Source: a bacterium (GTDB taxonomy: Bacteria; UBA8248). From it: a stretch of DNA of 49,308 bases. The notes below the pieces were generated by a model. That model was not told where the DNA came from. It saw only the letters and a list, made by a program, of their open reading frames with translations, and made no database searches. Positions 2,576 through 41,060 of this stretch are shown in pieces. The first letter of the stretch is position 1. Each line of letters starts with the position of its first letter. The translations under genes and the position numbers were made by a program. The stretch is taken from positions 1 through 49,308 of the forward strand of contig JAQBZT010000001.1 of NCBI GenBank assembly GCA_027622355.1. Reading direction: 5' to 3'.

Positions 2576-3088
2576 TTATTCTTTCGGCACCCACAAATAC
2601 CGCTCTGCCGCCGCTTCATATCCATACCATCCCCCCGGTTCGCTCCGGGCACCGGATATCTCCCTTCGCCGAATTTCGATGCGCACATTCACGCCCTTTG
2701 TCCCTGCCTGCCTGAGAAGTCCGGCAGTCAGGCGGGCAGCACTCTGGCCGCGGAGTTTCCATTTTTTCTCGCTTTTTTCCGACCAGGGAAGCGTTATCGA
2801 AAACTCGAGCTTTCTTTGGGTGGCCAGGGTGACCTGCGTCTTGGCCCCGCTGACGTGCCGCGCGGCATCCAGGTAAATTTTCACGAGCCGTCCGACACCC
2901 GACACCGCCTCGCGGGGCGGAAGGCCCCGCAGCACTTTCGCCTTCTCCATCAATTCGGCCCGAACCCCGGCGGCCCGGAAGAGAACCGGCTGCGCCCACC
3001 ACAGGGAAATACCCGCAATGGCGGTCAGTGTGCCGAGAAACACCCATACGAACAGGTCGTTTCTTTTTTTCCTGTCAGGTCCGGTCAT
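2576..3088 (-). CDS. hypothetical membrane-anchored protein
   Basis: 170 aa with a single N-terminal TM helix (LFVWVFLGTLTAIAGISLWWA). ATG at 3086-3088, 10 nt downstream of the stop of the preceding minus-strand gene. No recognisable domain. Confidence 0.45.
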   Translation of the reverse strand: MTGPDRKKRNDLFVWVFLGTLTAIAGISLWWAQPVLFRAAGVRAELMEKAKVLRGLPPREAVSGVGRLVKIYLDAARHVSGAKTQVTLATQRKLEFSITLPWSEKSEKKWKLRGQSAARLTAGLLRQAGTKGVNVRIEIRRREISGARSEPGGWYGYEAAAERYLWVPKE

Positions 3089-3097
3089 GGATTGCGC

Positions 3098-3781
3098 CTA
3101 ACGAATCGGGTAAGCCGGAGCGTACCCGCCCTCCGGCGCTTCCGGGCAGGCGGGCGGGAGCCCCATCGCCTCTTTGTGCATCCGGATGGAGCGGAGATGG
3201 ATCAGATCGTCCCAAAGCGCATGGCGAAGGGTCGCCAGCGGGGAAAGCAGAAAGTGGCCGGGCCGATCCGGATCGGCCTCGACGCCGTCGGGATGGCACC
3301 GCGCGTTCCGCGACCACAGATCGAGTGTCGGCTCATCGGTCACGCCGACGCGGGCATCTTCCGGAAAAATGAACAACAGGCACGGCGCCTGGACATCCTC
3401 TTCCGACATGCGATCAGCCCGCTCCGCCGCCGCGCCGCAGGCCTCCTCCAGCCTGTCGAGAAGCCAGCCGGGATCACCGTAGCGTTCCGCCGAAAAGCGC
3501 CGATCATCCTTCGGGGTGTTGATGAACGACCCGAACTGGCTCATGTCCACCGGCCGCCAGGGAAGCGCGGTCGCTCCGTAGAGAACCATGAACCAGCGGT
3601 TGGTGATGTAGGACATGTGGCTGAGCTGGTAGCGCACCGGCCAGAGGGCCCATTCCCCGGAGCCGGTCCGATCAAGTTGATCGTTCTTCAGCCCGGCGAT
3701 CTCCTTCCGCGTCCACCCGGCCAGGCGGCGATAGACTTCCGCTACCTCCGGCGCCGCCACGGGATAATTTTTCCCGGTCAT
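3098..3781 (-). CDS. conserved hypothetical protein (possibly DinB-like helical bundle); paralog of 7310..7984
   Basis: Track ORF 3098..3967 trimmed to ATG at 3779-3781 (MTGKNYPVAAPE...), preceded by GAGGAAG and lying just after the HAD gene stop at 3789. It shares motifs with the 7310..7984 product (W-x-W...MRHM/LSHM...; ALRHALWDDLIHLRSI vs ALRQIHWEILAHTRTI). Confidence 0.55.
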   Translation of the reverse strand: MTGKNYPVAAPEVAEVYRRLAGWTRKEIAGLKNDQLDRTGSGEWALWPVRYQLSHMSYITNRWFMVLYGATALPWRPVDMSQFGSFINTPKDDRRFSAERYGDPGWLLDRLEEACGAAAERADRMSEEDVQAPCLLFIFPEDARVGVTDEPTLDLWSRNARCHPDGVEADPDRPGHFLLSPLATLRHALWDDLIHLRSIRMHKEAMGLPPACPEAPEGGYAPAYPIR

Positions 3782-3788
3782 TGCTTCC

Positions 3789-4520
3789 TCAAGCAAGCTT
3801 CGGCGGCGGGGGCTCGCCCGCACCGTTTTTGAGACAATCCCAAACGCCTTCACCGTCCAGCTCGGAAAAGAGATGATCGGGCGCCGCGCCGGAAAGCCTC
3901 TCCAGGGAATCGCCGCCGGTGGCGACCGCAATCGTCCGTGCGCCGGCGGCCTTTCCGGCCTCGACATCCCGCCAGGTATCGCCGACCACCCAGCGGACGA
4001 TCTCCGCCTTCGGGTCCCGCTCCCGGATACGCTCCTCTCCCCGGCAAAACCCTGCTTCGATCAAATCGGCCCGCAAAGAAGCATCCGAGGCAAAACCCCC
4101 AAAGGGGAAATAACGGTTCAGGCCTCCCCTTTCGAGCTTGATCCGGGCGCCCTCCTCGATGTTTCCGGTCCCCAGGCCGAGCAAAACCCCGGCCCGGCCG
4201 GAGAGAAAGTCCAACGCGTCCGGGATGCCGGGCATGAGGCGAAACCCCTTCGATTGGGCCACCTCCTGCGGCAGGTACTCCAGGTAGCGGCGCAGAATCT
4301 CCGCCACCTCCGCCGCCGAACCCTCCCGGTCCAGGTGGGCCTGGAACATTTCCTGGCAGATGGCAGGGTCAGTTTTTCCGTGCGGGCCGATTCCGGCCAT
4401 GGCGTTCGGAACGCCGTAGAGCGCGGCGAAAGCCGCGTCCAGGGCGCGGGCGCCCGACCCGCCGCTGAGCAGCAGGGTGCCGTCAATGTCGAAGAGAATC
4501 AGATGGTGTTGTGACGGCAT
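3789..4520 (-). CDS. HAD family hydrolase (phosphoglycolate-phosphatase-like)
   Basis: Trimmed to ATG at 4518-4520 (MPSQHHLILFDIDGTLLLSGG...). HAD motif I DxDGT and motif IV VGDTWRD. Confidence 0.8.
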   Translation of the reverse strand: MPSQHHLILFDIDGTLLLSGGSGARALDAAFAALYGVPNAMAGIGPHGKTDPAICQEMFQAHLDREGSAAEVAEILRRYLEYLPQEVAQSKGFRLMPGIPDALDFLSGRAGVLLGLGTGNIEEGARIKLERGGLNRYFPFGGFASDASLRADLIEAGFCRGEERIRERDPKAEIVRWVVGDTWRDVEAGKAAGARTIAVATGGDSLERLSGAAPDHLFSELDGEGVWDCLKNGAGEPPPPKLA

Positions 4521-11508: not shown

Positions 11509-11883
11509 TCAGTTTCGGGGAGGATAGACCATCGGCGGCCCGTAGCCCTGGCCCATCGTGCCGGGCCCAAAACCCTGGCCCATCGTGCCGGGACCAAAGT
11601 CCTGTCCCATCATCCCGGGGCCAAAACCCTGTCCTGTCGCGCCGGGGCCAAAACCCTGTCCTATCGTGCCGCGCCCAAAGCCCTGGCCCATCATGCCGGG
11701 ACCGTGGCCATAGCCGGCGCCGTTCATCCCCCAACCATATCCCGGCCCATGCCCTTGGCCCCATCCGGACCCGGGGCCGTGACCTCGTCCCCATCCGTAG
11801 CCAGGGCCGTGACCGTAGGAAATCACGGAAAAAAGGAAAACGGCCGCAACGGCCAGGAGAGTGAATCCAAGAAATTTTTTCAT
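11509..11883 (-). CDS. secreted Gly/His/Met-rich tandem-repeat protein
   Basis: Trimmed to ATG at 11881-11883 (MKKFLGFTLLAVAAVFLFSVISYG = signal peptide). This is followed by GHGPGYGWG-type and GQGFGPGxM-type 9-residue repeats through to the C-terminus. Confidence 0.65.
   Translation of the reverse strand: MKKFLGFTLLAVAAVFLFSVISYGHGPGYGWGRGHGPGSGWGQGHGPGYGWGMNGAGYGHGPGMMGQGFGRGTIGQGFGPGATGQGFGPGMMGQDFGPGTMGQGFGPGTMGQGYGPPMVYPPRN
11546..11707. repeat. 6 x 27-nt in-frame tandem repeat (encodes the GQGFGPGxM units)
   Basis: Units start at 11546, 11573, 11600, 11627, 11654 and 11681 (ccctggcccatcgtgccgggcccaaaa and variants). They are contiguous, with no spacers. Confidence 0.85.
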
Positions 11884-12097
11884 CTGCGTATTCCTCCGCG
11901 CCGCCGGTAATGTGCCCCACAGGGAGAGCCGCTCTCTGAAGAGGATGCGGGAGTTGGCGAAGCGCCTGAATTCCCGCACCTGCCATTTAAGACGTCCCGG
12001 TCCTGAAAAAGTTCCCGGCGGCCGGAAAATTTCAGGCGATGTGCCCGATGACGCGGAAATTCGCGGTTTCTACAGGGAGAAAATACAGGGAGAAAAA

Positions 12098-12484
12098 TCA
12101 ACGGGGCGGGATATGTTTTTCCGCGCCCTCAAGCTCAAGCACCCCCGGCGGGCGCCCCGCGGCCTCGACGAGGGCGGCGTCCGCCCCGGCGAGCGCCATC
12201 TGCAGGAGCGCCTCGGCGAGCTCCGCGTCGGGCGAGAGCCGCACCGCGCGGCGCGAGACTTCATTTTTTCCGGCGAGCTCGGCCGCGGTGAGAAACGTCT
12301 CCGGCGTCAGGAGCGCTTCCCTGAGATCCGCTGCCCGGAGAAGACCGAGGAGCCTTCCGCCCTCTCCTTTTACCGCCGCCCAGGGCGCGTTTTTCTTGTT
12401 CATGGCCGCCCACACCTCCCGGGCGTCCATCTCGGGCCGCACCACCGCCACTGCATGGAGAAAGCACTCACGGACTTTCATCAT
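12098..12484 (-). CDS. CBS-domain protein
   Basis: 128 aa, starting ATGATG at 12479-12484. CBS-like segments (AVKGEGGRLLGLLRAADL; ALVEAAGRPPGVLEL). Confidence 0.6.
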   Translation of the reverse strand: MMKVRECFLHAVAVVRPEMDAREVWAAMNKKNAPWAAVKGEGGRLLGLLRAADLREALLTPETFLTAAELAGKNEVSRRAVRLSPDAELAEALLQMALAGADAALVEAAGRPPGVLELEGAEKHIPPR

Positions 12485-12493
12485 TCCCCCCGG
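12480..12493. repeat. left copy of 14-bp direct repeat ATCATTCCCCCCGG
   Basis: Identical to 13712..13725. It contains the CBS gene start codon (cat 12482-12484). Confidence 0.9.
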
Positions 12494-12495
12494 TA

Positions 12496-12524
12496 ATTAT
12501 TAATTAATATTATTCATATTTGAA
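12496..12524 (-). promoter_or_regulatory. candidate sigma70-like promoter reading out of the insert into the CBS operon
   Basis: Minus strand TTCAAA (12519-12524), 17-nt spacer, AATAAT (12496-12501), 11 nt before the CBS ATG. Prediction by eye only. Confidence 0.3.
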
Positions 12525-13711: not shown

Positions 13712-13725
13712 ATCATTCCCCCCGG
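13712..13725. repeat. right copy of 14-bp direct repeat ATCATTCCCCCCGG
   Basis: Identical to 12480..12493. It contains the crotonase stop codon (tca 13713-13715). Confidence 0.9.
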
Positions 13726-14498
13726 AAGCGGGGCTTTCGCTTTTCGCGGAAGGCGGCGAGGGCCTCGGCAAAATCCTTTGTCTGGTTCAGGGGAAGGCGT
13801 ATCTCGTTGGAGTAGGCGATGGCGCCGTCCATCGGCATATCGAGGGAGGTGTCGATCACTTTCTTCGCGCCGCGGATCCCGAGCGGGCCGTTCTCGCAGA
13901 TGCGCCCGCCGATATTCCGCGCCGTATCCATCAACTCCGCGAGGGGAAGCGCCCGGCTCACGAGCCCGATGCGCTCGGCCTCGCGCCCGTCGAACCGCTT
14001 GGCGGTGAAAATCAGCTCCTTGGCCAGCCCCTGTGGAATGAGTCTGGCGAGGCGGACAGAAGCCCCCGCCCCCGGAAAAACGCCCAGCGCGGTCTCGGGA
14101 AAGCAGAGCGTCGCATCCTCGGCGGCGTAGCGCATATCGCAGCCGAGCGCCGCCTCCAGCCCCCAGCCGAAGGCCGCGCCGTTGATCGCGGCAATCGTGG
14201 GCATCGGAAGGCGGGACCAGCGGACCACCGCATCCATGGCCAACTGCTGGAACCGGTCGGCTTCTTCCCTGGAGTGGGTTGCGCTCTCTTTCAGATCGCG
14301 GCCCGTGCTGAAGGCGCGGCCCTCGCCCGTCAGAATGACGGCGCGCACACGGGTATTCTTCGCCAGAGCGTCCGCCAGCGCGCAGACCTCCTCGGCGAGA
14401 TTCATGCCCAGCGCGTTCAGCCGATCCGGCCGGTTCAGCCTTACGATCGCAAGGCCACTCTCTTCCTCTTCGTAGATGATTTCCTGAAAATCTTGCAC
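13713..14498 (-). CDS. enoyl-CoA hydratase/isomerase family protein
   Basis: 261 aa, GTG start. Crotonase-fold pattern (IVRLNRPDRLNAL, LTGEGRAFSTGRDL, AAINGAAFGWGLE). Confidence 0.85.
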   Translation of the reverse strand: MQDFQEIIYEEEESGLAIVRLNRPDRLNALGMNLAEEVCALADALAKNTRVRAVILTGEGRAFSTGRDLKESATHSREEADRFQQLAMDAVVRWSRLPMPTIAAINGAAFGWGLEAALGCDMRYAAEDATLCFPETALGVFPGAGASVRLARLIPQGLAKELIFTAKRFDGREAERIGLVSRALPLAELMDTARNIGGRICENGPLGIRGAKKVIDTSLDMPMDGAIAYSNEIRLPLNQTKDFAEALAAFREKRKPRFRGE

Positions 14499-14533: not shown

Positions 14534-15070
14534 CTAGGTGGCCGAAACGAGATAACTGACCACCTCATCGGCGAAGCGGAGGGCCACTTCTTCCATCTCC
14601 TCGCGCCGGAGGTTGCTCACCGGGTGAGGGAGTTTCACATAAGAATGATTCTCCATCCCCTTGCCCTTGAACTGAAAATCCGCCGCCGTCCTGAACGCCT
14701 CGGTGATTACCGTGGTGGAGGGGATCCCGCGTTTTTCGAACTCCACTGTGTCGTGCACACTGCACAACGTGCAGGAGCCTCACCCGCCCAGGGCGCAGAC
14801 GACCACATCGCACTGCGCGGCCATTTCCTCGATGATGGCTGCATCGGCCGGCTTCGAGTAGTGCTCCTTCCTGCGGAGAATCACCTCTTTCGCGCCGTAG
14901 CGTTCCTTCAGTTCGGCGCCGATGGTTCGAAGAATGACATCCGCCTGCTCTTTGGTGTTGTCGAGAAGGCCGACAACCTTCCCCGCCAAGTCTTTGGGCC
15001 GGAGCGCGGGGCGCACCGCCGCCTTCCGGCTGCCCGCGGTTGGATCCACGAAATCTATTTTCGGGTTCAT
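14534..15070 (-). CDS. UGSC-family selenoprotein (in-frame TGA at 14780-14782 read as Sec, codon 97 of 178)
   Basis: Track ORFs 14780..15196 and 14534..14767 share one frame and are separated only by TGA plus 12 nt. The joined sequence is ...DVVVCALGG-U-GSCTLCSVHDTVEFEKRG... ATG at 15068-15070 follows GAGGAG, whereas the downstream piece has no ATG or RBS. Hairpins lie directly 3' of the TGA. Confidence 0.7.
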
Positions 15071-15256
15071 CTCGTTCTCCTCTGAAGGGAATAGCGAGAA
15101 ACCAATATATTCTCCGGCGCGGGCCCTGTCCACGACGGCGGACAAACGACTCCGAAATGGGGACTTCTCCCCGCCCCAAAAATCTGCGAGAATCAAGCCC
15201 GTTGTCAGGAGCGCGGCGGGCAGCCCCGATCGCTCTGTTCTCGAAATCCCTTATAT

Positions 15257-17539
15257 ATGAGGCGAAACATGGCCGAGCACGATCTGATTGGCAAATCCAA
15301 TATACGGTTCGACGCCATCCCGAAGGCGGATGGCTCCCTTCCCTACGGGGAGGACATGGTGCCCACCGGGGCGCTCCACTGCGGCGTTCTTTTCTCGCCC
15401 GTTCCCTACGGAACCCTCCGGAAGCTCGATATCTCCAAAGCAAAAAAAGTTCCCGGCGTGGCGGCGGTCCTGACGGCGGAGAACATTCCCGGCAAGAACA
15501 TCCGCTACGGCTCGAACACCCTGACCCACGCCGGGCAGCCAGTCCTGATTCCGGTCGGGAGCAAGATCGAGTTCACCGGCGACGCCCTCGCCATCGTCGG
15601 CGCGGAAACGAGAGAGGCGCTCGACGCGGGCATTCACGCCATCCGGGCGGACATCGAGTCGCACAGCGGCACCTGGACCATGTCCGAAAGCAACTCCAGC
15701 GCTGAAAAACGCAGGGTCTGCGATTTCGAGACCGCGCGCGGCAATCTCGAGGCCGGCTTCAAAGAAGCCGATGTCATCATCGAGAAAACCTACACCACCC
15801 AGTTGGCCGAGCATGCGTTCCTGGAGCCTTGCTCGGGCTCTTCCTGGATCGACGAGGACGGCGTTCTCACCATCCGGGTCGGCACCCAGCTCATCGAATA
15901 CTACCGCGCCATCGCCGCGATAATCGGCGTGCCGCAGAGCAAGGTGCGCCATCTCGGCACCTTCGTCGGCGGGGGCTTCGGCGCCAAGGGCATGATGACC
16001 GTCGAGCCCTATCTCGCACTGCTGACCCACCTCACGAAGCGCCCCGCCGCCATGACGCTCGGGCGCGAGGAGGGCATCCGCTCCACCGTGAAAAAGCATC
16101 CCTTCGTGATGCACTACCGCACCGGCGTCACCCGCGAGGGAAAAATCGTGGCGCTTGAGGCGGACATTGTCGGCGACGCGGGGGCCTATCCCTACAAGTC
16201 GAACCTCTTCCTTCTCGGCGCGATGTGCATCGCCGGCGGACCCTATGAAATCGAGAACATCCGCATCCGCGCCCACGGCTACCTGACGAACAACCCCATC
16301 ACGAACGCCATGCGCGGGGTGGGCTCCAACCAGGTCTGCTTCGCCTACGAGAGCCAGATCGAACTGGCGGCCAAAGAGCTCGGCATCGATCCTTTCGAAC
16401 TGCGGCGCAGGAACTTCATCCAGAAGGGCGGAAAACTCCCGACCGGCCAGGCGATTCCCTTCAAGCCCAACCTCGAAGGGTGCCTCGAGAGCGCCCGCAA
16501 GGCGCTCGGTGCGCGCTCTTCCGCCAAACCCGGCAAGCGCATCGGCCAAGGATTCGCCGCCAACATCACCGGCTACGGGCGCCCGTTCGATGATGCGAAC
16601 GCGGCGGTCCACCTCGAGCCCGACGGAAGCGCGGTTGTCCGCGTGAGCGCCCCCGACATCGGCGCCGGACAAGGAGCCACGCTCCAGACCATCGCCGCCG
16701 AAGTCCTCGGCCTGCGGCTTGATCAGGTGGCGGTGCATCTTTCCGATTCGGCCACGACGCCCCTTTCGGGCATCACGGCGGGAAGCCGGCAGACGATGAT
16801 GGCGGGCAACGCCCTGAAGGGCGCGGCAGAGGAAGTGAGAAAGGCACTCCTCCGCGGCGCGTCCTCCGCACTGGAAGCCGCCGAAGGCGACATCCGCATG
16901 AGCGGCGGAGAGATCTGGGTGACCTCCTCCCCCGATCGGCGCATCACCACCGCCCAGGCGGGCGCCAAGGCGAAAGAGCTGAAAGAATCCCTGCACTGCA
17001 CCCACGGCATCGAAACGCCGGGGCATGAGTACGAAAATCCCGAGCGCTACATGGGCGGCATGGGCGGCTGGGCGGACTACACTTTCGGCGTGCACGCCAC
17101 CGAGGTCGAGGTGGACATCGACACTGGCGAGGTGAACGTCCTCAAGCACGTGGCCTGCCACGACGTGGGCCGCGCCCTCAACCCCCAGAGCGTGGAGGGC
17201 CAGTTTGAGGGCGGCGCCGTCATGGGCATCGGCTACGCCCTGCACGAAGAGATCACGATGACCAAGGGCGATTGCCGCTCGCAGAGCTTCCACGAGTATC
17301 TGATCCCCACCTCCACCGACATCGGGGATTTCGAATCCATCATTCTCGAGTGCGGCGAGGGGCTCGGCCCCTTCGGCGCGCGCGGCGTGGGCGAGCCGCC
17401 CTGCAACAACGCGCCCGCGGCGGTGGCCCTGGCCGTGAACAACGCGATTGGAACCACGGTCTACGAGCTTCCGATCACGCCGGAGAAGGTTTGCTGGGCG
17501 GTTCGGGGCAAAAACGGCAACGGGCGAAGAGGCCGCTGA
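15257..17539 (+). CDS. xanthine dehydrogenase/aldehyde oxidase family molybdopterin-binding subunit
   Basis: 760 aa. N-terminal a/b-hammerhead region followed by MoCo-binding domains (GGGFG, ...GQG..T). Alternative start at ATG 15269. The antisense ORF 15251..17557 is a shadow. Confidence 0.85.
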   Translation: MRRNMAEHDLIGKSNIRFDAIPKADGSLPYGEDMVPTGALHCGVLFSPVPYGTLRKLDISKAKKVPGVAAVLTAENIPGKNIRYGSNTLTHAGQPVLIPVGSKIEFTGDALAIVGAETREALDAGIHAIRADIESHSGTWTMSESNSSAEKRRVCDFETARGNLEAGFKEADVIIEKTYTTQLAEHAFLEPCSGSSWIDEDGVLTIRVGTQLIEYYRAIAAIIGVPQSKVRHLGTFVGGGFGAKGMMTVEPYLALLTHLTKRPAAMTLGREEGIRSTVKKHPFVMHYRTGVTREGKIVALEADIVGDAGAYPYKSNLFLLGAMCIAGGPYEIENIRIRAHGYLTNNPITNAMRGVGSNQVCFAYESQIELAAKELGIDPFELRRRNFIQKGGKLPTGQAIPFKPNLEGCLESARKALGARSSAKPGKRIGQGFAANITGYGRPFDDANAAVHLEPDGSAVVRVSAPDIGAGQGATLQTIAAEVLGLRLDQVAVHLSDSATTPLSGITAGSRQTMMAGNALKGAAEEVRKALLRGASSALEAAEGDIRMSGGEIWVTSSPDRRITTAQAGAKAKELKESLHCTHGIETPGHEYENPERYMGGMGGWADYTFGVHATEVEVDIDTGEVNVLKHVACHDVGRALNPQSVEGQFEGGAVMGIGYALHEEITMTKGDCRSQSFHEYLIPTSTDIGDFESIILECGEGLGPFGARGVGEPPCNNAPAAVALAVNNAIGTTVYELPITPEKVCWAVRGKNGNGRRGR

Positions 17540-17645: not shown

Positions 17646-18011
17646 TTGGATCTCTACGCTCTCGGCCTGTTGATCTATGGAATCTTCATCGGAACCGTGA
17701 ACACCTCGACCGGTATCGGCTGGGGGGTGGCGACGGTTCCCTTTCTTTTCTTCTTCGTTCCGGGCCTCAGCCCGGCGCAGGTGGTGGCGGTCTCCCTCGT
17801 CGGCGGCATCTTCAGCAACGGAGCGGCCACGGTGGAGAATTTCCGGGGCGATCTGATCCACTGGCGCACCGCGGCCTACCTTGCGGCCGGCGCCGCCGCC
17901 GGCGGGATCATCGGCTCCCATATCATCCGCAGCCTGCCCGCGGCTCCCCTCCGCCGGATCCTCGGCGTCATCGTCCTTATTCTCGGCGCAAGGATGGTGC
18001 TGGGAAAGTGA
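17646..18011 (+). CDS. half-size TauE/SafE-like membrane protein
   Basis: Trimmed to TTG 17646 after GAGGAGG. About 121 aa and 4 TM. GxGxG-type TauE pattern and a C-terminal LRRILGVIVLILG helix. About half the usual family length. Confidence 0.5.
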   Translation: MDLYALGLLIYGIFIGTVNTSTGIGWGVATVPFLFFFVPGLSPAQVVAVSLVGGIFSNGAATVENFRGDLIHWRTAAYLAAGAAAGGIIGSHIIRSLPAAPLRRILGVIVLILGARMVLGK

Positions 18012-18138: not shown

Positions 18139-19164
18139 ATGCTGCAGTCCACCATCGCCGGCAGCCTGCCGAAGCCCGCCTGGCTGGCGGAAGAGGTCGA
18201 ACTCTGGGCTCCCTGGAAATCCTCGGGAGCCGAGCTCGAGCGCGCCAAGCGGGACGCCGTCGCGCTCGCCATCAAGATCCAGGAAGACGCCGGGATCGAC
18301 ATCGTCACCGACGGGGAGCAGACGCGCCAGCATTTCGTTCACGGCTTCCTGGAGTTCGTGGAGGGAATTGATTTTTCCAAGCGCGTGCGCATCGGCATCC
18401 GCGATGATCGCTACGAGGCGGACTGCCCCGTCGTCGTGGGGCCCATCTCGAGAAGGCCGCCCGGCCACGCGGATGAGGTGCGCTACTCCCGCAGCCGAAC
18501 GAAGCACAAGCTCAAGTTCACCCTGCCGGGGCCCATGACCATCGTGGACACGCTGGCGGACAACCACTACGGCGATCGCCCGAAGCTCGCCATGGCGTTC
18601 GCCGAGGCGCTGAACGAAGAAGCCCGCGCACTGGAAGCCGCGGGCGCCGACATGATCCAGTTCGATGAGCCCGCCTTCAACGTCTACATGGACGCGGTCA
18701 AGACCTGGGGAATCGAGGCTCTCGAGCGCGCGGCCGATGGGCTCTCCTGCCAAACCGTGGTCCACATCTGCTACGGCTACGGCATCCAGGCCAACATCGA
18801 CTGGAAGGAGGGTCTTGCGGAGGAGTGGCGCCAGTACGAGGAGACCTTCCCGGTTCTCGCCAAAAGCCGGATCGGCGGCGTCTCCCTCGAGTGCGCCAAC
18901 TCCCGCGTGCCGATCAGCCTGCTCGGGCTCCTCGAGGGAAAAGACGTGCTCGTCGGCGCGATTGACGTAGCCGACCGCACCGTCGAAACCCCCGAACGGG
19001 TGGCGGCGGTCATCCGCGAAGCGATGCGGTACGTCTCGCCCGAGCGCCTCTACCCCTGTACCAACTGCGGCATGGTGCCACTCCCCCGCGATGTGGCCGA
19101 GGGCAAGCTTAAGGCCCTCGGCGCCGGAACGAAGCTCGTCCGCGAGGAAATCGCCGGGAAGTAA
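18139..19164 (+). CDS. cobalamin-independent methionine synthase (MetE C-terminal domain)-like protein
   Basis: 341 aa. Meth_synt_2-like pattern MLQSTIAGSLPKPAWL, DGEQTRQ, HICYG (H-x-C) and PCTNCGM zinc-ligand motifs. Confidence 0.85.
   Translation: MLQSTIAGSLPKPAWLAEEVELWAPWKSSGAELERAKRDAVALAIKIQEDAGIDIVTDGEQTRQHFVHGFLEFVEGIDFSKRVRIGIRDDRYEADCPVVVGPISRRPPGHADEVRYSRSRTKHKLKFTLPGPMTIVDTLADNHYGDRPKLAMAFAEALNEEARALEAAGADMIQFDEPAFNVYMDAVKTWGIEALERAADGLSCQTVVHICYGYGIQANIDWKEGLAEEWRQYEETFPVLAKSRIGGVSLECANSRVPISLLGLLEGKDVLVGAIDVADRTVETPERVAAVIREAMRYVSPERLYPCTNCGMVPLPRDVAEGKLKALGAGTKLVREEIAGK
19121..19164 (+). repeat. 44-bp direct repeat, copy 1 (last 13 codons plus stop of the MetE-like gene)
   Basis: gcgccggaacgaagctcgtccgcgaggaaatcgccgggaagtaa, identical to 19580..19623. 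Confidence 0.9.
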
Positions 19165-19657: not shown

Positions 19658-20686
19658 CTAAACCTCGAACTTCCGTGTGACGGAGCGGCTCGCGCCGTTC
19701 CAGCCGTGGAGGATGTTTGTCTGCGGGCCGGGGATGCCGCCCGCGACGATGAGGAGGAGATGCTCGGGCTTCTTGATGACGGGGATGAACTTCTCGTCGT
19801 CATCAAAGTCGGCCGCGCAGGGGAGGGATCTGACGCGATCGGGGGAGTAGCCTCCCGCCTTTTTGAGCTCGCCCGCCGCCCGCCCCGCCATCTCGCAGAG
19901 CCTCTGGTGCACCTCGGCCTTCGTCATCCCCGCCTTGGCGCAGATGTTCGCGTGGTCGGGGGCCATCGCCACCACCATGTCGGATTCCTGAAGCGAGTTC
20001 ATCGAGCCGAGCGAGCTCATCGAGTCGGCGATGCCCGCAAGGAGCCTTTCGGGCCCGTTGCTCACATCGTCGAAAAACTGAAAGGGGGCGATGGCGGCGA
20101 CGGCGGTCAGGACGTTTTCCTCCGCGCCGAAGCCCTTTGTCGCCGAGAGCGGCTCCCACGGGCTTTGGGCCTCGTTCTCGGCGATGCAGTAGGTATAGCG
20201 GCCGGGATGGCCGAAGGTGCTCATGGAGACGACGCCGGGGATGCCCGCCCCCAGGTTCAGCAGCATGAGCCGGATCGCCCTTCCGATCGTCGCGTTGGCG
20301 CGGAAGCCGGGGCCGAAGCAGCCGCTCCCCCCGTGCAGGCCGATCTCCTTCGCGTAGGGGCCGTTGACGATCAGGAGCGGCGCGGCGCTGCTCATCGTGG
20401 CCTGGATGCCGTTTATGCTAAAGGGCTCGGCGAGGATGGCCTCGAGCCCGCCGATCACCACGGGAAGATAGGCTGGCTTGCAGCCCGCCATCACGGCGTG
20501 AACGGCGACGGTGTAAACGGCCGCCACTTCGTTTCCCGGCGGGATGGCGCCGATGACTTCATCGGGATCGCGGCGCGTGCCCGAGAGCATCTCCGCCACG
20601 CGCGCCTCGGTGGGGATCACGACCGGCAGGCCGTCGGACCATTCCTTCTCGAAGAAAAATTCGAACTCATCGCCCGCTTGCGGCAT
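19658..20686 (-). CDS. conserved hypothetical protein (about 342 aa)
   Basis: Trimmed to ATG at 20684-20686 (MPQAGDEFEFFFEKEWSDGLPVVIPTE...) after GGAAGGA. Globular, non-repetitive sequence. No domain recognised by eye. Confidence 0.6.
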   Translation of the reverse strand: MPQAGDEFEFFFEKEWSDGLPVVIPTEARVAEMLSGTRRDPDEVIGAIPPGNEVAAVYTVAVHAVMAGCKPAYLPVVIGGLEAILAEPFSINGIQATMSSAAPLLIVNGPYAKEIGLHGGSGCFGPGFRANATIGRAIRLMLLNLGAGIPGVVSMSTFGHPGRYTYCIAENEAQSPWEPLSATKGFGAEENVLTAVAAIAPFQFFDDVSNGPERLLAGIADSMSSLGSMNSLQESDMVVAMAPDHANICAKAGMTKAEVHQRLCEMAGRAAGELKKAGGYSPDRVRSLPCAADFDDDEKFIPVIKKPEHLLLIVAGGIPGPQTNILHGWNGASRSVTRKFEV

Positions 20687-29706: not shown

Positions 29707-30321
29707 CTACCGGGACGCGTTCGGTATCACCGACAGCGCCTGGGAAATCATCTTATGAACCTCATGCGAGTACCGATCCGCCCCGCCGAAGACCACCCCG
29801 GTGGCCATCCCCTTCGCCGACCAAAGAACCTTCCCTTTTTTCAGATCGATCCATCTCAGTTCCAGTCGAATCTTCAGGGGCTCGAGCTGGATGAGCCGCA
29901 CATCTCCCCCGATGCCCACCTCGTCATCGGGAAACAGCGAGGCGATCTTCTTCAGGGTTTTCGGGTCGCTGTATTTGAGTCCGACAATCCGCTCCTTGAC
30001 GAATACGCTCAGCGTCTGGTTGTAGTCGCGAACCGCATATCCTTTTTTCAGCAGCACCTCGACGATGCTCGCCATGTTCGAGCGGACATCATCGCCCGTC
30101 ACCTGAAGGGTGATGATGGATTTCGTATCCTGGAGCCGCAGGGCACGGAAGGCGGGAGTTCCCGGGGGCGGGGAGTAGGTGAATCCGTCGCCCGACTTAC
30201 CGATCCCCCCTCCTGAGGCTCGAAGGCCGCATCCGGCAAGAAGAGCCGCCAGCAGCAGGGCGGAAGCGAAAAAGCGCGGCGCCTCGCCGAACATCCGGCG
30301 TTCCCGCGCGCGAGTTTTCAT
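29707..30321 (-). CDS. lipoprotein, unknown function
   Basis: Trimmed to ATG at 30319-30321 (MKTRARERRMFGEAPRFFASALLLAALLAG-C lipobox). Start overlaps the bactofilin stop (TAATG). Confidence 0.5.
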   Translation of the reverse strand: MKTRARERRMFGEAPRFFASALLLAALLAGCGLRASGGGIGKSGDGFTYSPPPGTPAFRALRLQDTKSIITLQVTGDDVRSNMASIVEVLLKKGYAVRDYNQTLSVFVKERIVGLKYSDPKTLKKIASLFPDDEVGIGGDVRLIQLEPLKIRLELRWIDLKKGKVLWSAKGMATGVVFGGADRYSHEVHKMISQALSVIPNASR

Positions 30322-30737
30322 TACGCCTCTTTCGGCGGCGCCGCGCTCGCCTCCCCGCCCGCCGCGCGCCCGGTCATGTGGCAGGTGCCCTCGAAGACGG
30401 CGCCTTCCTCGATGAAAATGTTCGAGGTGTACACGTCTCCCTTGACGTGCCCGCCGAGGCGGATTTCGCATTTTTGTTTCGCCTCGATCTTCCCTTCCAC
30501 CTTTCCCATCACGACGACGATGCCGGCCTGGATGTTGGCTTTTACGGTGGCCGCCGAGCCGACGATAAACGTGTCCTCGGTCACTACCTCTCCTTCGAGA
30601 ATGCCGTCAACGCGCACCGTCCCCTCGAAAGTGATGACGCCCTTGAATTCTGTGCCTTCCCCCAAAAAGGCCCTGATGGTCTTCTCGTAGTTCGCATCCC
30701 CTCGGGCCACCGCTTTTCCTCCCGTTTGCCGGAACAT
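30321..30737 (-). CDS. bactofilin (polymer-forming cytoskeletal protein)
   Basis: 138 aa. Repetitive beta-helix pattern (G.V.G.V / VRVDGILEGEV...KVEGKIEAKQKCEIRLGGHVKGDV) typical of the DUF583/bactofilin domain. Immediately downstream of parB. Confidence 0.8.
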   Translation of the reverse strand: MFRQTGGKAVARGDANYEKTIRAFLGEGTEFKGVITFEGTVRVDGILEGEVVTEDTFIVGSAATVKANIQAGIVVVMGKVEGKIEAKQKCEIRLGGHVKGDVYTSNIFIEEGAVFEGTCHMTGRAAGGEASAAPPKEA

Positions 30738-30740
30738 GCC

Positions 30741-31658
30741 TCAGGCCAGCCGATCGATCAGCCCCTCGAGCATGTCCTTTGAGTAATAATCAATAATGAT
30801 CTTTCCCTTTTTTTCGTCCCCGTCAATCGCCACCTTCGTTCCCAGGGTACTGCGAAGGCGCTCGGTCTGCTCCCGAAGGAAAATGGCCTCCGGCCCCCGG
30901 GGGCCTTCATCCTTCGCGGGACGCCGCCGTCCCCCCCCCGGGCCCGCCGCTTTCGTCAGCGCCTTCCGCACCCTGTCCTCGAGCTGGCGGACCGACAGGT
31001 TTTTCTTCACCGCCTCGTCCGCGAAGCGCTCGGCTTCTTCCGGGGATCGCAGCGACAAAAGCGCGCGGGCGTGGCCCATCGAGAGAAGGTCGGCGGCGAC
31101 GCTCTCCTGAACGGCGAGCGGAAGCCGGAGAAGGCGGATGTAGTTCGCCACCGTGGAGCGTTCCTTGCCCACACGGGCGGCGAGCTCTTCCTGCGTCACG
31201 CCGAGCCGATCCATCATGCTGGAAAAGGCCGCCGCCACCTCCATCGGGTTCAGATCCGCGCGCTGCACGTTTTCGATGACGGCGATCTCGAGAAGTTTTT
31301 CGGCCGCGGCCTCCACCAAGATCACGGGAACCGTTTCGAGGCCGGCCGCGCGGGCGGCGCGCCACCTCCGCTCGCCGGCCACGATTTCGTATCTCCCCGC
31401 GGTGGAGCGCACCAGTATCGGTTGAAGCACGCCGTGCGTTTTGACGGACTCGGAAAGTTCCTTGAGGCTTTCGTCGTCAAAGTCGATCCGCGGCTGGTGA
31501 ACACCGGGGTGCAGATCGGCCACGGGCACGCGGCTCAGGCGCTCGCCCTCCGCCGCGGGAGCGGCGATCGGCCCTTCATCCGGCGGCGACATCGGATCCG
31601 AGGAAAGAAGCGCATCCAGTCCACGGCCGAGGGCCTTGCGTCCTTTTGTGGCCGCCAT
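30741..31658 (-). CDS. parB: chromosome partitioning protein ParB/Spo0J
   Basis: 305 aa. GRGLDALL, LQPILVR, GERRWRAA and HTH region. Confidence 0.9.
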   Translation of the reverse strand: MAATKGRKALGRGLDALLSSDPMSPPDEGPIAAPAAEGERLSRVPVADLHPGVHQPRIDFDDESLKELSESVKTHGVLQPILVRSTAGRYEIVAGERRWRAARAAGLETVPVILVEAAAEKLLEIAVIENVQRADLNPMEVAAAFSSMMDRLGVTQEELAARVGKERSTVANYIRLLRLPLAVQESVAADLLSMGHARALLSLRSPEEAERFADEAVKKNLSVRQLEDRVRKALTKAAGPGGGRRRPAKDEGPRGPEAIFLREQTERLRSTLGTKVAIDGDEKKGKIIIDYYSKDMLEGLIDRLA

Positions 31659-32500
31659 TAATTCATCCTCCGCCTTCTTCCGGCGCGGGTGAGAAACTCG
31701 CTGGCCATGGCGAGGTAGGCCTGCGCGCCCGAAGATGAAATGTCGTATGCAATGACGGGCTTTCCATGGCTCGGCGCCTCGGCGAGGCGAATGCTCCGCG
31801 GGATCGCGACGCGGTAAGTGAGCTCGGGAAGGTGCGTGCGGAGATCCTCCCCCACCTGCCGGGAAAGATTGGTTCGCGAGTCGTACATCGTGAGAACGAT
31901 GCCGCCCACCCGAAGGCCCGGATGGATGGATTGCCGGACGCGCTCGATCGTTTTCATGAGGCGGGCCAGACCCTCGAGCGCGAAGTACTCCGCCTGAATC
32001 GGGATCAGCACCTCATCGGCCGCCCGGAGAGCGTTGAGGGTCAAAAGGCCGAGCGAGGGGGGGCAATCGATCAAGATAAAGTGGAACGCCGAGCGGTACC
32101 TCTCCAAAACACTTCGAAGCCTCTCCGTCCGGTTCGGCAGATCCGCCAGCTCGAGTTCGGCACCGACCAGATCGATGGACGAGGTTAAAACTCTAAGTCT
32201 TTTTATATCAATAGTTTGCAGTGATTTCTCCTCGATCCGCTCGTCCATCACCAGCGCCCGGTAGAGGGCCGGGTCCTGGGTGTCGAGACCGAAGGCGCTC
32301 GAGGCATTCGATTGCGGATCCAAGTCAACAAGCAGGGTAGGCTCATCGGCCACCGCGAGGCACGCGGCGAGGTTCACTGAGGTGGTGGTTTTGCCCACCC
32401 CGCCCTTCTGGTTCACGATGGCGATAACCCGTGCCTGCCCGGGAGAATTCTGGCTTTCCGCAGCCGGACGGCTGGGCTCGGAGACAGCTGCTTCCGACAT
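31658..32500 (-). CDS. parA: chromosome partitioning ATPase ParA/Soj
   Basis: 280 aa. Deviant Walker A NQKGGVGKTTT. Stop overlaps the parB start. Confidence 0.9.
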   Translation of the reverse strand: MSEAAVSEPSRPAAESQNSPGQARVIAIVNQKGGVGKTTTSVNLAACLAVADEPTLLVDLDPQSNASSAFGLDTQDPALYRALVMDERIEEKSLQTIDIKRLRVLTSSIDLVGAELELADLPNRTERLRSVLERYRSAFHFILIDCPPSLGLLTLNALRAADEVLIPIQAEYFALEGLARLMKTIERVRQSIHPGLRVGGIVLTMYDSRTNLSRQVGEDLRTHLPELTYRVAIPRSIRLAEAPSHGKPVIAYDISSSGAQAYLAMASEFLTRAGRRRRMN

Positions 32501-32570
32501 AGGACCTCGCTGAGGAGAGATAGGATCGGCTCCTAGAAAGTGTCATAGTCAGGCACAAATTTCAAGGGAA

Positions 32571-32586
32571 TGTTTCACGTGGAACA
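32571..32586. promoter_or_regulatory. parS site 1 (TGTTTCACGTGGAACA)
   Basis: 15/16 match to the canonical parS TGTTTCACGTGAAACA. Located between mnmG and parA. Confidence 0.8.
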
Positions 32587-32608
32587 CAGTTTTTCGAAAT
32601 TTTCCAGA

Positions 32609-32624
32609 TGTTCCACGTGGAACA
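32609..32624. promoter_or_regulatory. parS site 2 (TGTTCCACGTGGAACA, perfect palindrome)
   Basis: Perfect 16-bp palindrome, 14/16 to the parS consensus. Its start lies 38 bp after that of site 1. Confidence 0.8.
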
Positions 32625-32636
32625 TCCCTGGCCCCG

Positions 32637-34559
32637 CTAGCTGCCTTCAGGGGACAAGGGATGGCCCCCATCGCCAGAGGCGGAGGAGCGGCGGAGGTGA
32701 ACTTCCAGCAGCGCGATAGCCGCGGGCGTTACCCCCGAGATGCGGCTGGCCTGTCCGAGGGTCCGGGGCTGGACCTCTGTCAGGCGCTGGCGAACCTCGA
32801 ATTTCAGATGTTTAATCTCTTTAAAATCAAAACTTTCTGGAATGCGTATCCGGTCAGCCGCCCGGAGGGTGGCCACCTGCCGCCCCTCCCGGAGCACGTA
32901 CTCCTTGTACTGCACTTCGGCCAGGACAAACCGGCGGGCCTCCTCGCCCAGTCCATTCCACAACTCCAGGAGGCGTCCGCCCTGCACGGCATCCACCCGG
33001 AGCGCCACTTCGGCCCCCACCTCCGGCCGGCGGAGAATATCCCCCAGCTTTTGTGGCTTCCGGAGCGCTGCCGTCCCGAAGGACTGGAGGAGATCCGACA
33101 CAGAGGGCTTGGGATAAACGTCCGCATCCTCAATGTAATCAATTATTTCTCGACATTTCGTCTTTTTTTCGCCAAAAGCCTGGAAGGTTGTATCGTCCAG
33201 GGAACCCACCCGGTGGCCCAGCGCCATCAGGCGCATATCCGCATTGTCGTGGCGGAGGAGCAGCCGGTGCTCCGCCCGGCTGGTGAACATCCGGTAGGGC
33301 TCGGCCACCCCCTTCGTCACCAGATCATCGATCAGCACCCCGATGTAGGCCTCCTCCCGCCCGAGGATGAGCGGCGCCTCCTCGCGCAGATAGCGTGCCG
33401 CGTTGATGCCCGCCATGAGACCCTGTGCCGCCGCTTCCTCGTAGCCCGTCGTCCCGTTGATCTGCCCGGCATGGAAGAGCCCCGGCACGCGCTGCGTCAT
33501 CAGGCTCGGCATCAGCTCGGTCGGGTCCACAAAGTCGTACTCCACCGCATAGCCCGGCCGCATGATCTCCGCCCGCTCGAGGCCCGCGATCGATCGAACA
33601 ACGCCCAACTGCACATCCACGGGCAGGCTCGTCGAGAGCCCGTTGACGTAGATCTCGAGTGTCTGCCTTCCTTCGGGCTCGAGAAAAATCTGGTGCGCCT
33701 CCTTGTCCGGAAAGCGCATCACCTTGTCCTCAATGCTCGGACAGTAGCGCACCCCGGTGCCCTCGATCTGGCCGTTGAACATCGGCGCGCGATCGATGTT
33801 CCGGCGGATCAGCTCATGCGCCTTCGGGTTGGTGTAGGTGATGTAGCAGGGAACCTGATCCTGCCGGATGCGATCGGTGCGGAAGGAAAAAGGACGGGGC
33901 GGCTCGTCCCCGGGCTGAACCGCGAGCGAGCCGAAGTCGATCGTCCGCGCATCGAGACGCGGCGGCGTTCCCGTCTTCATCCGCCCGATGCGGAAGCCGA
34001 GCGATGCGAGTTGATCCGTCAGCCCGCGCGCCGCGCCCTCGCCCGCGCGCCCGCCCTCGATCTTCTGATCGCCATAGTGCAGCAGCCCGCGCGTGAACGT
34101 GCCCGGCGTCAGGATCACCGCCCGCGATTCGAACCGCTCGCCGAACTGTGTCTCGATGCCCGCCGCGCGGCCCGCATCATCCAGCAGGATCCGCCGGAGC
34201 GCGCCCTGCTTGAGAATGAGGCCCTCCTGCCGCTCGACGGCGTATTTCATGTACATCCGGTATTGCTGTTTGTCGGCCTGCGCCCGGAGGGCCTGAACGG
34301 CGGGGCCTTTCCGGGTGTTGAGCATGCGGAACTGAATGCCGGTCGCGTCAATCGCCCGGGCCATCTCACCGCCCAGCGCGTCCACCTCGCGGACCAGCAC
34401 GCCCTTCGCGAGTCCCCCGATCGCCGGGTTGCAGGACATCAGCCCCACCGTGTCGAGGTTCATCGTGAAGAGCAGCGCCCTTGCGCCCATGCGCGCCGCG
34501 GCGAGCGCCGCCTCGCATCCCGCGTGGCCGGCACCGATCACGATGATGTCGAAATTCAA
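32637..34559 (-). CDS. mnmG: tRNA uridine-5-carboxymethylaminomethyl(34) synthesis enzyme MnmG (GidA)
   Basis: 640 aa. [19 protein letters not shown] motif and full-length GidA pattern. TTG start after GAGGGA. The antisense ORF 32661..34577 is a shadow. Confidence 0.95.
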
Positions 34560-36082
34560 TCTCTAGTCCCTCAATAAATTCGGGTCCGCCGGCCTACGAA
34601 AGATACTGATCGAGGTTTTCCGCCTGCAAAATATCCATCACTTCTTTGGCCATCCACGCTCGATTTCTTTGCTTTCCCGTAATTTCTTGAAGAAAGCCTT
34701 CGTCTTCGAGCCGCTGGATTGCTCGAATGGCGGTGGGAAGGGTTACTTTAAGCCGATCCGCTACGCCTGGTGACCGGCAAACCGGAAAACCAATCAGGCT
34801 GTCCACAAGAGCCATGCTCGTTGGCCCGCCCTTGGTCTGCATTTTTTGTCTGTATTCTTCTTGTTTATCTAACAACATTCTGATCCGCCAAGAGGAGTCC
34901 TTCGCCTGCATTTCCACTCCCCGGAGAAAAAAGATGAACCAGGGAATCCAATTGCCTTTTTGGCTAACGCCCAAAAGCAGATCGTAGTAATTACTGCGAT
35001 TTCGCTCAAAATAAGAGCTGAGGTACAGTAACGGCTGGGAAAGAAGCCCCCATTCACACAAAAGAATCGGAATTAACAAGCGGCCCACACGGCCATTTCC
35101 GTCCACAAAGGGATGGATTGCCTCAAACTGGTAGTGAATCATGGCCAGCTGTATTAGTGGCTGAATTTTGGATTTCGTGTGGAGAAATTTCTCCCAGTCT
35201 GAAATACATTCTTGCATTTCAGGAGTCGGTGGTGGCACATAAGTGGCATCATGAACAGAACTTCCGCCTATCCTGTTTTGCACTCGCCGAAACTCACCCG
35301 GGGCCCTATCTTGCCCTCTCACTTCTCGCAATAAAATAGAGTGGAGATCCCTCACAAACCTGAGTCCTATGGGCAACTCCAATCTGCGATCAAGTCCAAC
35401 CTCAAGCGCAATTACATAATTCAAAACCTCCCTGCGAACATCTGCGCCCTGTGGATGGTGCGTGGGATCGGCTTCATGGATGAACAACTCATCCAGATCG
35501 GTTTCTGTTCCCTCAATTCGACTGGACGCTTCGGCTTCTTTTCGCAAAAAAGGCCGAATCAATAAATGGGGGTTCGGTAGCGTTCTCCCGACCCCGGAGA
35601 GATCGCCCAGCGCTCCACGGGCTTCGGCCAAAGCGGCCATAAGTTCATCTGTAATTTTAATTTCAGGCGGAAGGGGGTCGGGCACAAACGCCGGGGCGCC
35701 CTCAGGAGTTCGAACAAGACGTCCTGGGGCATTCACCCCAAATTCTTCCTCTCTCATATCCGTATCCAAACCGTAGTGTCTGAACACTACTTGAGGCATC
35801 CACTTTTCACGCCACACCCGCATCCCTTGGGTACTCGAATACCCAAATTTCTTCCTCTCTCACAATGCGACCTTATCTAGTCAATAAAAACAACCATGTA
35901 AATGCTTTTGCCCTGCTTGTTGTCGAGAGTTAAACCATTATCACCTTTAACTAAAATTTTCAATAAAAATTTAACCAAGAAATTCCCTTGCTTAATTGTC
36001 CAATATTAACGATGGAAATATACTATATAGAGTGTTTTTACTGGTGCAGATAGCCTACATTTTGTATATTTCATTATTTTTA
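34560..36082. other. lower-GC island inserted between mnmE and mnmG (carries only the Fic gene)
   Basis: Composition drops visibly relative to mnmG and mnmE. 35824..36082 is strongly AT-rich. No flanking direct repeat or mobility gene was found by eye. Confidence 0.45.
34594..35823 (-). CDS. Fic family protein (class II, N-terminal inhibitory helix; C-terminal winged-helix)
   Basis: Fic motif HPFVDGNGRVGRLL. Inhibitory motif S-x-x-x-E-G in EASSRIEGTE upstream of it. C-terminal wHTH-like region. Start ambiguous: ATG at 35823, 35799 or 35757. Confidence 0.85.
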   Translation of the reverse strand: MRVWREKWMPQVVFRHYGLDTDMREEEFGVNAPGRLVRTPEGAPAFVPDPLPPEIKITDELMAALAEARGALGDLSGVGRTLPNPHLLIRPFLRKEAEASSRIEGTETDLDELFIHEADPTHHPQGADVRREVLNYVIALEVGLDRRLELPIGLRFVRDLHSILLREVRGQDRAPGEFRRVQNRIGGSSVHDATYVPPPTPEMQECISDWEKFLHTKSKIQPLIQLAMIHYQFEAIHPFVDGNGRVGRLLIPILLCEWGLLSQPLLYLSSYFERNRSNYYDLLLGVSQKGNWIPWFIFFLRGVEMQAKDSSWRIRMLLDKQEEYRQKMQTKGGPTSMALVDSLIGFPVCRSPGVADRLKVTLPTAIRAIQRLEDEGFLQEITGKQRNRAWMAKEVMDILQAENLDQYLS

Positions 36083-37504: not shown

Positions 37505-37572
37505 GGCATTGGTCCCGCCTGCCCGCCGGTTTTCGGCCCACGAATGGGCGGCCCTTTTCCTGAGGTGCGCCG

Positions 37573-38565: not shown

Positions 38566-39323
38566 CCGGTCCAGAGGCCCCCGTTGATGTCGAGCGTGAC
38601 GCCGGTGATGTAGCTTGCGCCCGGCGACGCCAGATACCAGACGCCGTCGGCGATCTCGTGCTCGGTCCCCGGCCTTCCCATGGGGATTCCCTTTTTGACG
38701 TCCTCGATCCGGTTCTTGTGCAGCTCGGCGACGCGGGGAGAGAGCACCACGCCGGGCGCCACCGCGTTCACAGTGATGCCGTGCGGGGCGAACTCCACGG
38801 CGAGGCGGCGCGTAAAACCGACGATGGCTGTCTTCGCGGTGGTGTACTCGACGGCGGTGAAGCGGACGCCGGTTCTCCCGGCGGTGGAGGAGATGCTGAC
38901 GATCCGGCCGTAGCCCGCTTTTTTCATGACGGGTACCGCCTCGCGGCAGCACAGGTAGACGCTCTTCAGGTTCCAGGCGATCGAGGCGTCCCAGACGTCT
39001 TCTTCCAGATCCTCGAAGTCGCGGATCTCGAGGAATCCGCCCGCGCAGTTCACGAGAATATCGAGGCGGCCCCATTTCCCGAGCGCTCCCCCGAAGGCGC
39101 TGTGCACCTCGTCGGCGGAGGCGGCTTCCGCCCGAAAGAAAGCCCCTTCACTCCCGGCCGCGGCCGCTTTCTCCGCCGCCGCGGCGCCCCTCACTTCGTC
39201 GCGGTCCAGCACGGCGACGCGCGCTCCCTCTCGGGCGAGACGCTCCACGCAGGCGAGGCCGATCCCGGCGCCGCCGCCGGTGACGACCGCCACTTGCCCT
39301 TCCAGGGATTTGCCTTGGCTCAT
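38562..39323 (-). CDS. SDR family oxidoreductase (FabG-like)
   Basis: 253 aa. VTGGGAGIG and NCAG motifs and an SDR-type Y-x-x-x-K (YTTAK). Confidence 0.8.
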   Translation of the reverse strand: MSQGKSLEGQVAVVTGGGAGIGLACVERLAREGARVAVLDRDEVRGAAAAEKAAAAGSEGAFFRAEAASADEVHSAFGGALGKWGRLDILVNCAGGFLEIRDFEDLEEDVWDASIAWNLKSVYLCCREAVPVMKKAGYGRIVSISSTAGRTGVRFTAVEYTTAKTAIVGFTRRLAVEFAPHGITVNAVAPGVVLSPRVAELHKNRIEDVKKGIPMGRPGTEHEIADGVWYLASPGASYITGVTLDINGGLWTG

Positions 39324-39910: not shown

Positions 39911-39939
39911 GACCCAGGGCTTGCGCGCCCCGGAAGCCC

Positions 39940-41043: not shown

Positions 41044-41060
41044 TTCGCTTTCCTCCCCTG

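Follow-up and report, generated by a model that had tools for sequence, protein, structure and literature searches.

The gene described here lies on the minus strand of a 49,308-nucleotide stretch of bacterial DNA, which constitutes a complete MAG contig and is hereafter called the window. This window corresponds to the chromosomal origin region and contains dnaA, recF, gyrB, yidC, mnmE, mnmG, parA, and parB. A first-pass annotation of the same DNA had proposed that two open reading frames, 14780..15196 and 14534..14767, were the two pieces of one selenoprotein gene, and it was verified, with all coordinates reproduced, that both belong to the same frame and are separated only by a TGA (14780-14782) and 12 nt. 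From the ATG at 15070, the gene runs through 96 sense codons, the TGA (14782-14780), 81 further sense codons, and a TAG stop (14536-14534). The TGA is codon 97 and falls, as had been anticipated, in a U-x-x-C context (U97-G-S-C100). The read-through junction was found to be ...AAQCDVVVCALGG*GSCTLCSVHDTVEFEKRGIPSTTV..., the peptide at this point being ...CDVVVCALGG-[TGA]-GSCTLCSVHDTVEFEKRG....

Regarding the beginning of the gene, the GAGGAG reported to precede ATG 15070 was indeed read from the sequence 6 nt before it (Table 1), and related loci aligned by tblastn from residue 1 of the protein that starts at this ATG. A promoter-like site was observed further upstream, which falls within the ORF if the start is TTG 15196; it represents weak evidence, because it is a consensus match only, of which 1 was found versus 0.6 expected. 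The prediction that gene callers would truncate or split such a gene was borne out by the public records. NCBI has the N-terminal 96 aa only, deposited as 'hypothetical protein O2807_00105' (MDA0998902.1), and two called 'UGSC' ORFs were observed on a matching ENA scaffold and on all of the other contigs inspected.

Table 1. Features at and around the split gene, in positions of the window
Feature	Position	Strand	Remarks
Enoyl-CoA hydratase gene	13713..14498	-	Pfam ECH_1, 2.4e-54; 35 nt downstream of the UGSC gene; same position in 33 loci
UGSC-family CDS, complete (predicted selenoprotein)	14534..15070	-	178 codons + TAG; predicted Sec at codon 97; frame, HMMs, tblastn
Candidate bacterial SECIS hairpin, GUUGUGCA-[GUG]-UGCACGAC	14750..14768	-	8 bp; loop 14758-14760; 19 nt from UGA to loop
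U-G-S-C-T-L-C (UxxCxxC) putative redox motif, residues 97-103	14762..14782	-	GSCTLC invariant in all Sec forms
In-frame UGA, predicted selenocysteine (U97)	14780..14782	-	TGA in 79/79 loci; Cys in 16/18 full-length homologs
Shine-Dalgarno-like GAGGAG	15077..15082	-	6 nt before ATG 15070; sequence inspection
Promoter-like TGGACA-17-TATATT	15104..15132	-	10/12 matches; upstream of ATG 15070; consensus match alone
Xanthine-dehydrogenase-family Mo-cofactor-binding subunit gene	15257-17539	+	Divergent from the UGSC gene; scores lower than all NCBIfam equivalog cut-offs
Unannotated 342-aa protein ('p339' family)	19658..20686	-	Conserved UGSC partner

A strict six-frame scan of the window, aimed at pairs of coding-like ORFs with one TGA between them, returned the present case and one other pair, formed by ParB (30741-31658) and the next ORF, which was read as two abutting genes and discarded. 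A looser scan gave 14 TGA sites, none of them convincing except that of the UGSC gene, and no second selenoprotein gene was seen in the window. The TauE-like ORF (17646-18011), which was also considered as a Sec-interrupted gene, is merely half-size and presents no interruption by a Sec codon.

The UGSC family has been known since 2005-2008. In the Global Ocean Sampling metagenomes, the UGSC-containing protein constituted a major selenoprotein family, represented by 255 Sec versus 21 Cys forms, and it was commoner in non-marine samples (PMC2398784). A thioredoxin-like fold was considered 'likely' for these proteins, and a fusion with a domain designated Unknown_1 was described (PMC2398784; Zhang & Gladyshev 2008). 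A 2026 review placed UGSC (NF041046) among the families whose functions 'remain largely uncharacterized' (PMC13188914).

The UGSC identity of the split gene, which the first-pass annotation had proposed, was confirmed by profile searches in which the joined 178-residue protein was used with Cys in place of the stop. NCBIfam NF041046, 'UGSC family (seleno)protein', matched with 148.3 bits (cut-off 125) over positions 2-146 of 147, and Pfam PF24696, 'UGSC', with 183.5 bits (cut-off 25) over positions 2-171 of 172; both matches continue straight across the UGA. In addition to this end-to-end match, the locus shares with the described family the U-G-S-C at the same column, the CGSC of the Cys forms, and the length of ~180 aa. 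Its relatives belong mostly to uncultured environmental bacteria known from MAGs alone, and the fusion to an unclassified domain reported in the literature also has a counterpart among the relatives gathered here. No essential difference was found, and the locus is a member of the family, although the fold, which is flavodoxin-like in the model of a homolog, differs from the thioredoxin-like suggestion of 2008. In this way, the finding is a mis-annotated further member of the known UGSC family, and it represents a correct but ordinary annotation fix.

The conservation of the in-frame TGA was followed in genomic loci retrieved by tblastn from GTDB contigs, with one genome per species. Eighty loci were obtained, with matches spanning residues 1 to ~176, and they were labelled as MAGs of Nitrospinota, Chloroflexota/SAR202, Tectomicrobia, Betaproteobacteria/Burkholderiales, and other groups. 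It was observed that the aligned codon was TGA in 79/79 loci in which this codon was locatable, L050 being the one locus without a locatable UGA. The frame remained open past the UGA for 80 codons in 70 of these 79 loci and for 81-86 codons in five more, which agrees with the expectation that homologs continue beyond this point, and the segment GSCTLCSVHDT(V/I)EFEK was almost invariant in the UGA-bearing loci. Because the amino acids are conserved while synonymous sites vary freely, the region past the UGA is considered to be translated. The occurrence of TGA at the same codon in every one of the 79 loci, followed by ~80 open codons, places the split arrangement far beyond chance.

Among the full-length homologs that were fetched and aligned, Cys occupied the column of the UGA in 16 of 18, usually within GDCGSC, and the second Cys (C100) was invariant. 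Thus, the TGA of the genomic loci and the Cys of the full-length homologs together support the earlier proposal that homologs carry Cys or Sec at this position. It had also been stated that homologs terminating at the GG position would speak against a selenoprotein. A search of 5.8 billion proteins yielded 133 matches, nearly all of ~97-130 residues and ending in ...GG, so that nearly all database homologs do terminate there; however, this ending is a gene-calling artefact and is misleading as a refutation, because gene callers cut these proteins at the same UGA. When the C-terminal piece was searched against 1.84 billion representatives, the matches were of two types: fragments of 70-85 aa that had been called separately, and full-length proteins with 170-200 aa. 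No solved PDB relative was found by sequence, with either the single protein or the family profile as the query.

Besides the UGA itself, a hairpin located immediately downstream of it was found to be conserved. Two alternative hairpins had been proposed in this segment, and both are present in the sequence, but only one of them stood. GUGCA-GUG-UGCAC was extended to a stem of 8 bp, which starts 12 nt past the UGA, occupies nucleotides 15-33 (with the U of the UGA as 1), and constitutes the core of the minimum-free-energy structure. Across 68 sequences, 544 of the 544 cells of this stem were paired, with no pair broken. Single wobble changes occurred in five of the 68 sequences, and a compensatory replacement of G-C by A-U, via synonymous changes in Leu and His codons, was found in L059, L063, and L070. 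For CUGCAC-GUU-GUGCAG (14760-14774), two pairs were broken, in 3 and 11 (the outer pair) of the 68 sequences, and this alternative was discarded, as it is disrupted by the very G to A change for which the 8-bp stem compensates. A lower stem predicted around the hairpin of the window was also set aside, as it relies on third positions of codons, which are free to vary in the relatives. The sequence of the window itself is an exact match to the consensus core of its relatives.

Codon usage in this segment also departed from that of the rest of the gene. In 78 distinct sequences, the codons +4 to +10 (ACG UUG UGC AGU GUG CAC GAC) exhibited entropies of 0, 0.24, 0, 0, 0, 0.35, and 0.10, whereas other degenerate codons in a span of 139 codons mostly displayed values of ~0.5 to 2.2. 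This near-zero entropy, confined to codons +4 to +10, reflects a constraint at the nucleotide level, that is, selection acting on the RNA in the hairpin region. The covariation is limited, since the sequence hardly varies and offers one compensatory pair, found in 3 sequences that perhaps share one ancestor, and the particular codons used for the invariant peptide C-S-V-H(-D) account for five of the stem pairs. With such little variation to compare, the alignments lend modest evolutionary support to an RNA structure at this site.

The bSECIS model for bacterial elements comprises a loop of 3-9 nt, a stem of 4-16 bp, a spacing of 16-37 nt between the UGA and the loop, and a minimum free energy <= -7.5 kcal/mol, with G in the first two loop positions followed by G or U (PMC13188914). 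A SECIS-compatible structure had been suspected in the first-pass annotation, and the hairpin observed here agrees with the model in all of these features, as it presents a GUG loop of 3 nt, a stem of 8 bp, a spacing of 19 nt, and energies of -8.8 kcal/mol alone and -10.3 in context. It resembles the SECIS of E. coli fdhF in its location inside the CDS just 3′ of the UGA and in a small apical loop that begins with G-U. On the other hand, its stem is a perfect 8 bp that lacks the bulged U present in fdhF, and its loop has 3 nt versus 4 in fdhF. The loop residues G23-U24 presumably lie as far from the UGA as they do in the E. coli element. An Rfam scan of the window gave no match.

In general, little conservation is attributed to bacterial SECIS elements. 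In the loci L001-L080, ~21 nt of the candidate SECIS core (14750-14770) are identical across MAGs of different phyla, whose proteins are 56-75% identical, which suggests either a very strong dual constraint or the horizontal spread of the gene. Only two Cys-form loci were available for comparison at the SECIS-equivalent position; L091 exhibited a similar 7-bp hairpin, and L092 none. The Cys-form homolog in L091 (L091:186-728; GDCGSCTSCSVHD) has GCG in the loop of this hairpin, which may mark a recent conversion from Sec to Cys.

No selA, selB, selD, or tRNA-Sec gene was found within the 49-kb window or in the flanks of related loci, and ARAGORN detected neither a tRNA of any kind in the window nor a tRNA-Sec in the related-locus flanks, which amounted to 1.2 Mb. 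Since no Sec machinery was seen in the window, the capacity of the organism to decode selenocysteine is inferred from the intact and consensus-identical arrangement of UGA, hairpin, and ORF. The lack of this machinery in the window, together with public records that hold a 96-aa hypothetical protein only, would be compatible with a pseudogene or a sequencing error, in which a UGSC gene once of the Cys type was divided by a nonsense mutation and now yields a 96-aa product or none. However, the identical TGA in 79/79 loci across phyla, a downstream frame that is open and under purifying selection, and an invariant hairpin placed where a SECIS is expected, which in the window equals the consensus core, make such a decayed gene very unlikely. 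The absence of tRNA-Sec from the window and from the related flanks could also be taken in favor of the UGA being read through as another residue, either after its reassignment (to Trp or Gly) or by a near-cognate tRNA (for Cys or Trp), all the more as Sec insertion at this locus is deduced from sequence. Nevertheless, neighboring genes, such as the TauE-like gene and parB, use TGA as an ordinary stop, and one in-frame TGA in a coding context, and no other, was found in the window. Moreover, the Cys found at this column in the non-UGA homologs forms a classic Sec/Cys pair with it and a SelB-type hairpin is conserved, so that a read-through with any residue other than Sec is exceedingly improbable.

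The possibility that two independent genes lie at this locus, one for a 96-aa N-terminal protein and the other for a C-terminal protein of 74-77 aa starting from TTG 14767 or GTG 14758, is in keeping with the two 'UGSC' ORFs that callers give on many contigs and with the short C-terminal fragments present as database entries. Yet neither of these internal starts is preceded by a purine-rich ribosome-binding site, which is consistent with the opinion of the first-pass annotation that the downstream ORF is unlikely to be a separate gene. In addition, the GSCT between the UGA and the internal starts is invariant and is part of the motif that names the family, the Cys-form homologs are continuous proteins of 170-200 aa, and the HMMs span the junction, leaving an almost negligible chance for a pair of genes. 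The preferred reading is that 15070..14534 (minus strand) is a single gene encoding a 178-residue UGSC selenoprotein, with a Sec-recoded UGA and a redox role exerted with a 340-aa partner, and a probability of roughly 0.93 was assigned to it. According to this single-gene reading, the UGA at codon 97 would be recoded to selenocysteine, and SelB-GTP-Sec-tRNA(Sec) would be brought to the ribosome by the 8-bp GUG-loop hairpin inside the CDS, in the manner of bacterial SECIS elements. MDA0998902.1 would then cover 96 of the 178 aa of a selenoprotein, and nearly all of the >100 database relatives retrieved are truncated likewise.

A possible relationship with better characterized selenoproteins emerged from the region surrounding the UGA. 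The UxxCxxC motif defines GrdB/F/H (PMC6778437, PMC13188914), and the Sec of GrdB/F/H and PrdB lies in UxxCxxC, to which U97-G-S-C100-T-L-C103 corresponds in the protein of the window. When 19 UGSC proteins were scanned singly, GrdB was weakly matched by 12 of them, with a best E-value of 1.5e-4, and other weak matches were to the TIGR01918/general selenoprotein-B model (7), GrdF (5), GrdH (4), and PrdB (2). Beyond the GrdB/PrdB group, no family was matched by more than one of the 19 proteins. The Sec region of UGSC (residues 81-165) aligned, weakly, to the Sec-containing C-terminal part of GrdB (331-409 of 431). Both the shared motif and the recurring weak matches suggest a remote similarity of the UGSC Sec region to selenoprotein B, the subunit found in the reductases of glycine, sarcosine, betaine, and D-proline.

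Despite this remote likeness, UGSC is not a member of the GrdB/PrdB group, because the scores are far below the cut-off and no grd/prd partners accompany the gene. The protein of the window reached 16.2 bits versus a cut-off of 602 for the GrdB/PrdB models (TIGR01917/01918, TIGR04483). No GrdA, GrdC, GrdD, GrdE, or PrdA gene was found near the UGSC gene, whose neighbors are ECH, MoCoBD, TauE, Meth_synt_2, and HAD genes. Furthermore, the UGSC protein has less than half the size of GrdB, and its relatives are mostly from MAGs of Nitrospinota, Chloroflexota, Tectomicrobia, and Betaproteobacteria, whereas the characterised reductases come from amino-acid-fermenting clostridia.

The neighborhood of the UGSC genes was surveyed by tblastn with chosen proteins and by means of pre-called genes, the clustering of raw ORFs being too noisy at 60% GC. 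A near-universal companion in the loci sampled was a family of ~340-aa proteins, which is encoded on the UGSC strand in 74 of the 80 loci. The two genes are adjacent in 46 loci, the 340-aa gene being directly upstream of UGSC in 39 (mostly Betaproteobacteria) and directly downstream in 7 (Chloroflexota/SAR202), and in the other 28 it is found 1-9 kb upstream. As for the six loci without this gene, five have flanks of just 0.3-4.7 kb on the relevant side, and the sixth is L050. The family includes at least 7,948 homologs and presents an invariant G-x-G-C-F-G-P-G-x-R-A-N-A motif. The copy at 19658-20686 has an invariant Cys123. Neither Pfam nor NCBIfam yielded a family for the 340-aa protein, even when E-values as high as 1-10 were admitted, and no fold in the PDB matched it. 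These genes often occur as 2-4 tandem paralogs; three to four copies were observed in L001, L008, L012, L016, and L017, three in L090, and two in L036, L041, L044, L051, and L058.

Both families are joined in P0115, an in-frame fusion of the C-terminal 143 residues of the 340-aa protein with UGSC. This fusion partner probably corresponds to the 'Unknown_1' of the 2008 paper (PMC2398784). The UGSC protein would most likely work together with the 340-aa protein encoded at 19658-20686. The most economical reading is that UGSC would act as a small redox subunit or partner of the 340-aa proteins in some organic-acid transformation. TctABC transporters, Amdase, beta-hydroxyacid dehydrogenase, and malate synthase were further recurring neighbors of UGSC, and organic-acid substrates are hinted at by TctABC, malate synthase, Amdase, and enoyl-CoA hydratase. 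It is possible, though rather doubtful, that UGSC, as the small Sec/Cys redox subunit, and the 340-aa proteins, as large subunits, constitute a widespread two-component enzyme of environmental Nitrospinota, SAR202, and Betaproteobacteria, which would use a Sec chemistry distantly similar to that of GrdB/PrdB on organic-acid substrates. The large 340-aa partner family, the UxxCxxC motif with the recurring GrdB similarity, and the predicted non-thioredoxin fold provide handles for experiments.

Concerning this fold, an AlphaFold2 (AF2) model was built for P0129, a Cys homolog with 42% identity to the protein of the window, from an alignment of 51 rows. The model had a mean pLDDT of 93 and displayed a repeating beta-alpha pattern, in which the Sec-equivalent Cys96 is found right after strand 88-94, at the N-terminus of helix 97-112 (the third helix). 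The end of a strand followed by the N-terminus of a helix is the usual place of a nucleophilic redox Cys or Sec. Foldseek matches of the P0129 model in the PDB had TM <= 0.47 and were flavodoxin- or Rossmann-like (azoreductase, NQO1, and flavodoxin domains), and no thioredoxin fold appeared among the 50 PDB matches listed, all of them weak. These matches tentatively suggest that the UGSC fold is flavodoxin-like rather than thioredoxin, the fold class being tentative because the matches are weak (TM <= 0.47) and the model is that of a homolog. The UGSC protein would thus be a small alpha/beta domain of flavodoxin-like type, in which U-G-S-C-T-L-C occupies the place where a strand ends and a helix begins. 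The nucleophile would be Sec97, joined to Cys100 in a selenenylsulfide and backed up by Cys103, a chemistry that would make the UGSC protein a thiol/selenol redox component.

The genes flanking UGSC in the window also recur elsewhere. No terminator-like site was found between the UGSC and enoyl-CoA hydratase genes, and both are probably co-transcribed. The divergent arrangement of the Mo subunit and UGSC genes was observed in ~33 loci, mostly of Nitrospinota, with 71-80% identity, and no genes for Fe-S or FAD subunits adjoin the Mo subunit gene at 15257-17539. Next to the latter come the genes for a TauE-like membrane protein of half size (17646-18011) and for a Meth_synt_2 protein similar to MetE (18139-19164).

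Other observations concern the remaining parts of the window. Long ORFs without a Pfam match were found at 37501-39075 (-), 29707-30471 (-), 2816-3832 (+), and 11861-12496 (+), and some of them may be spurious antisense frames, given the 60% GC. In the origin region (43722-49130, plus strand), dnaA (43722-45251) is followed after 221 bp by recF (45473-46618) and gyrB (46626-49130), with dnaN absent between dnaA and recF. The yidC, mnmE, mnmG, parA, and parB genes lie on the minus strand, at 30741-42692, and a Fic-domain gene (34594-35823) is placed between mnmG and mnmE.
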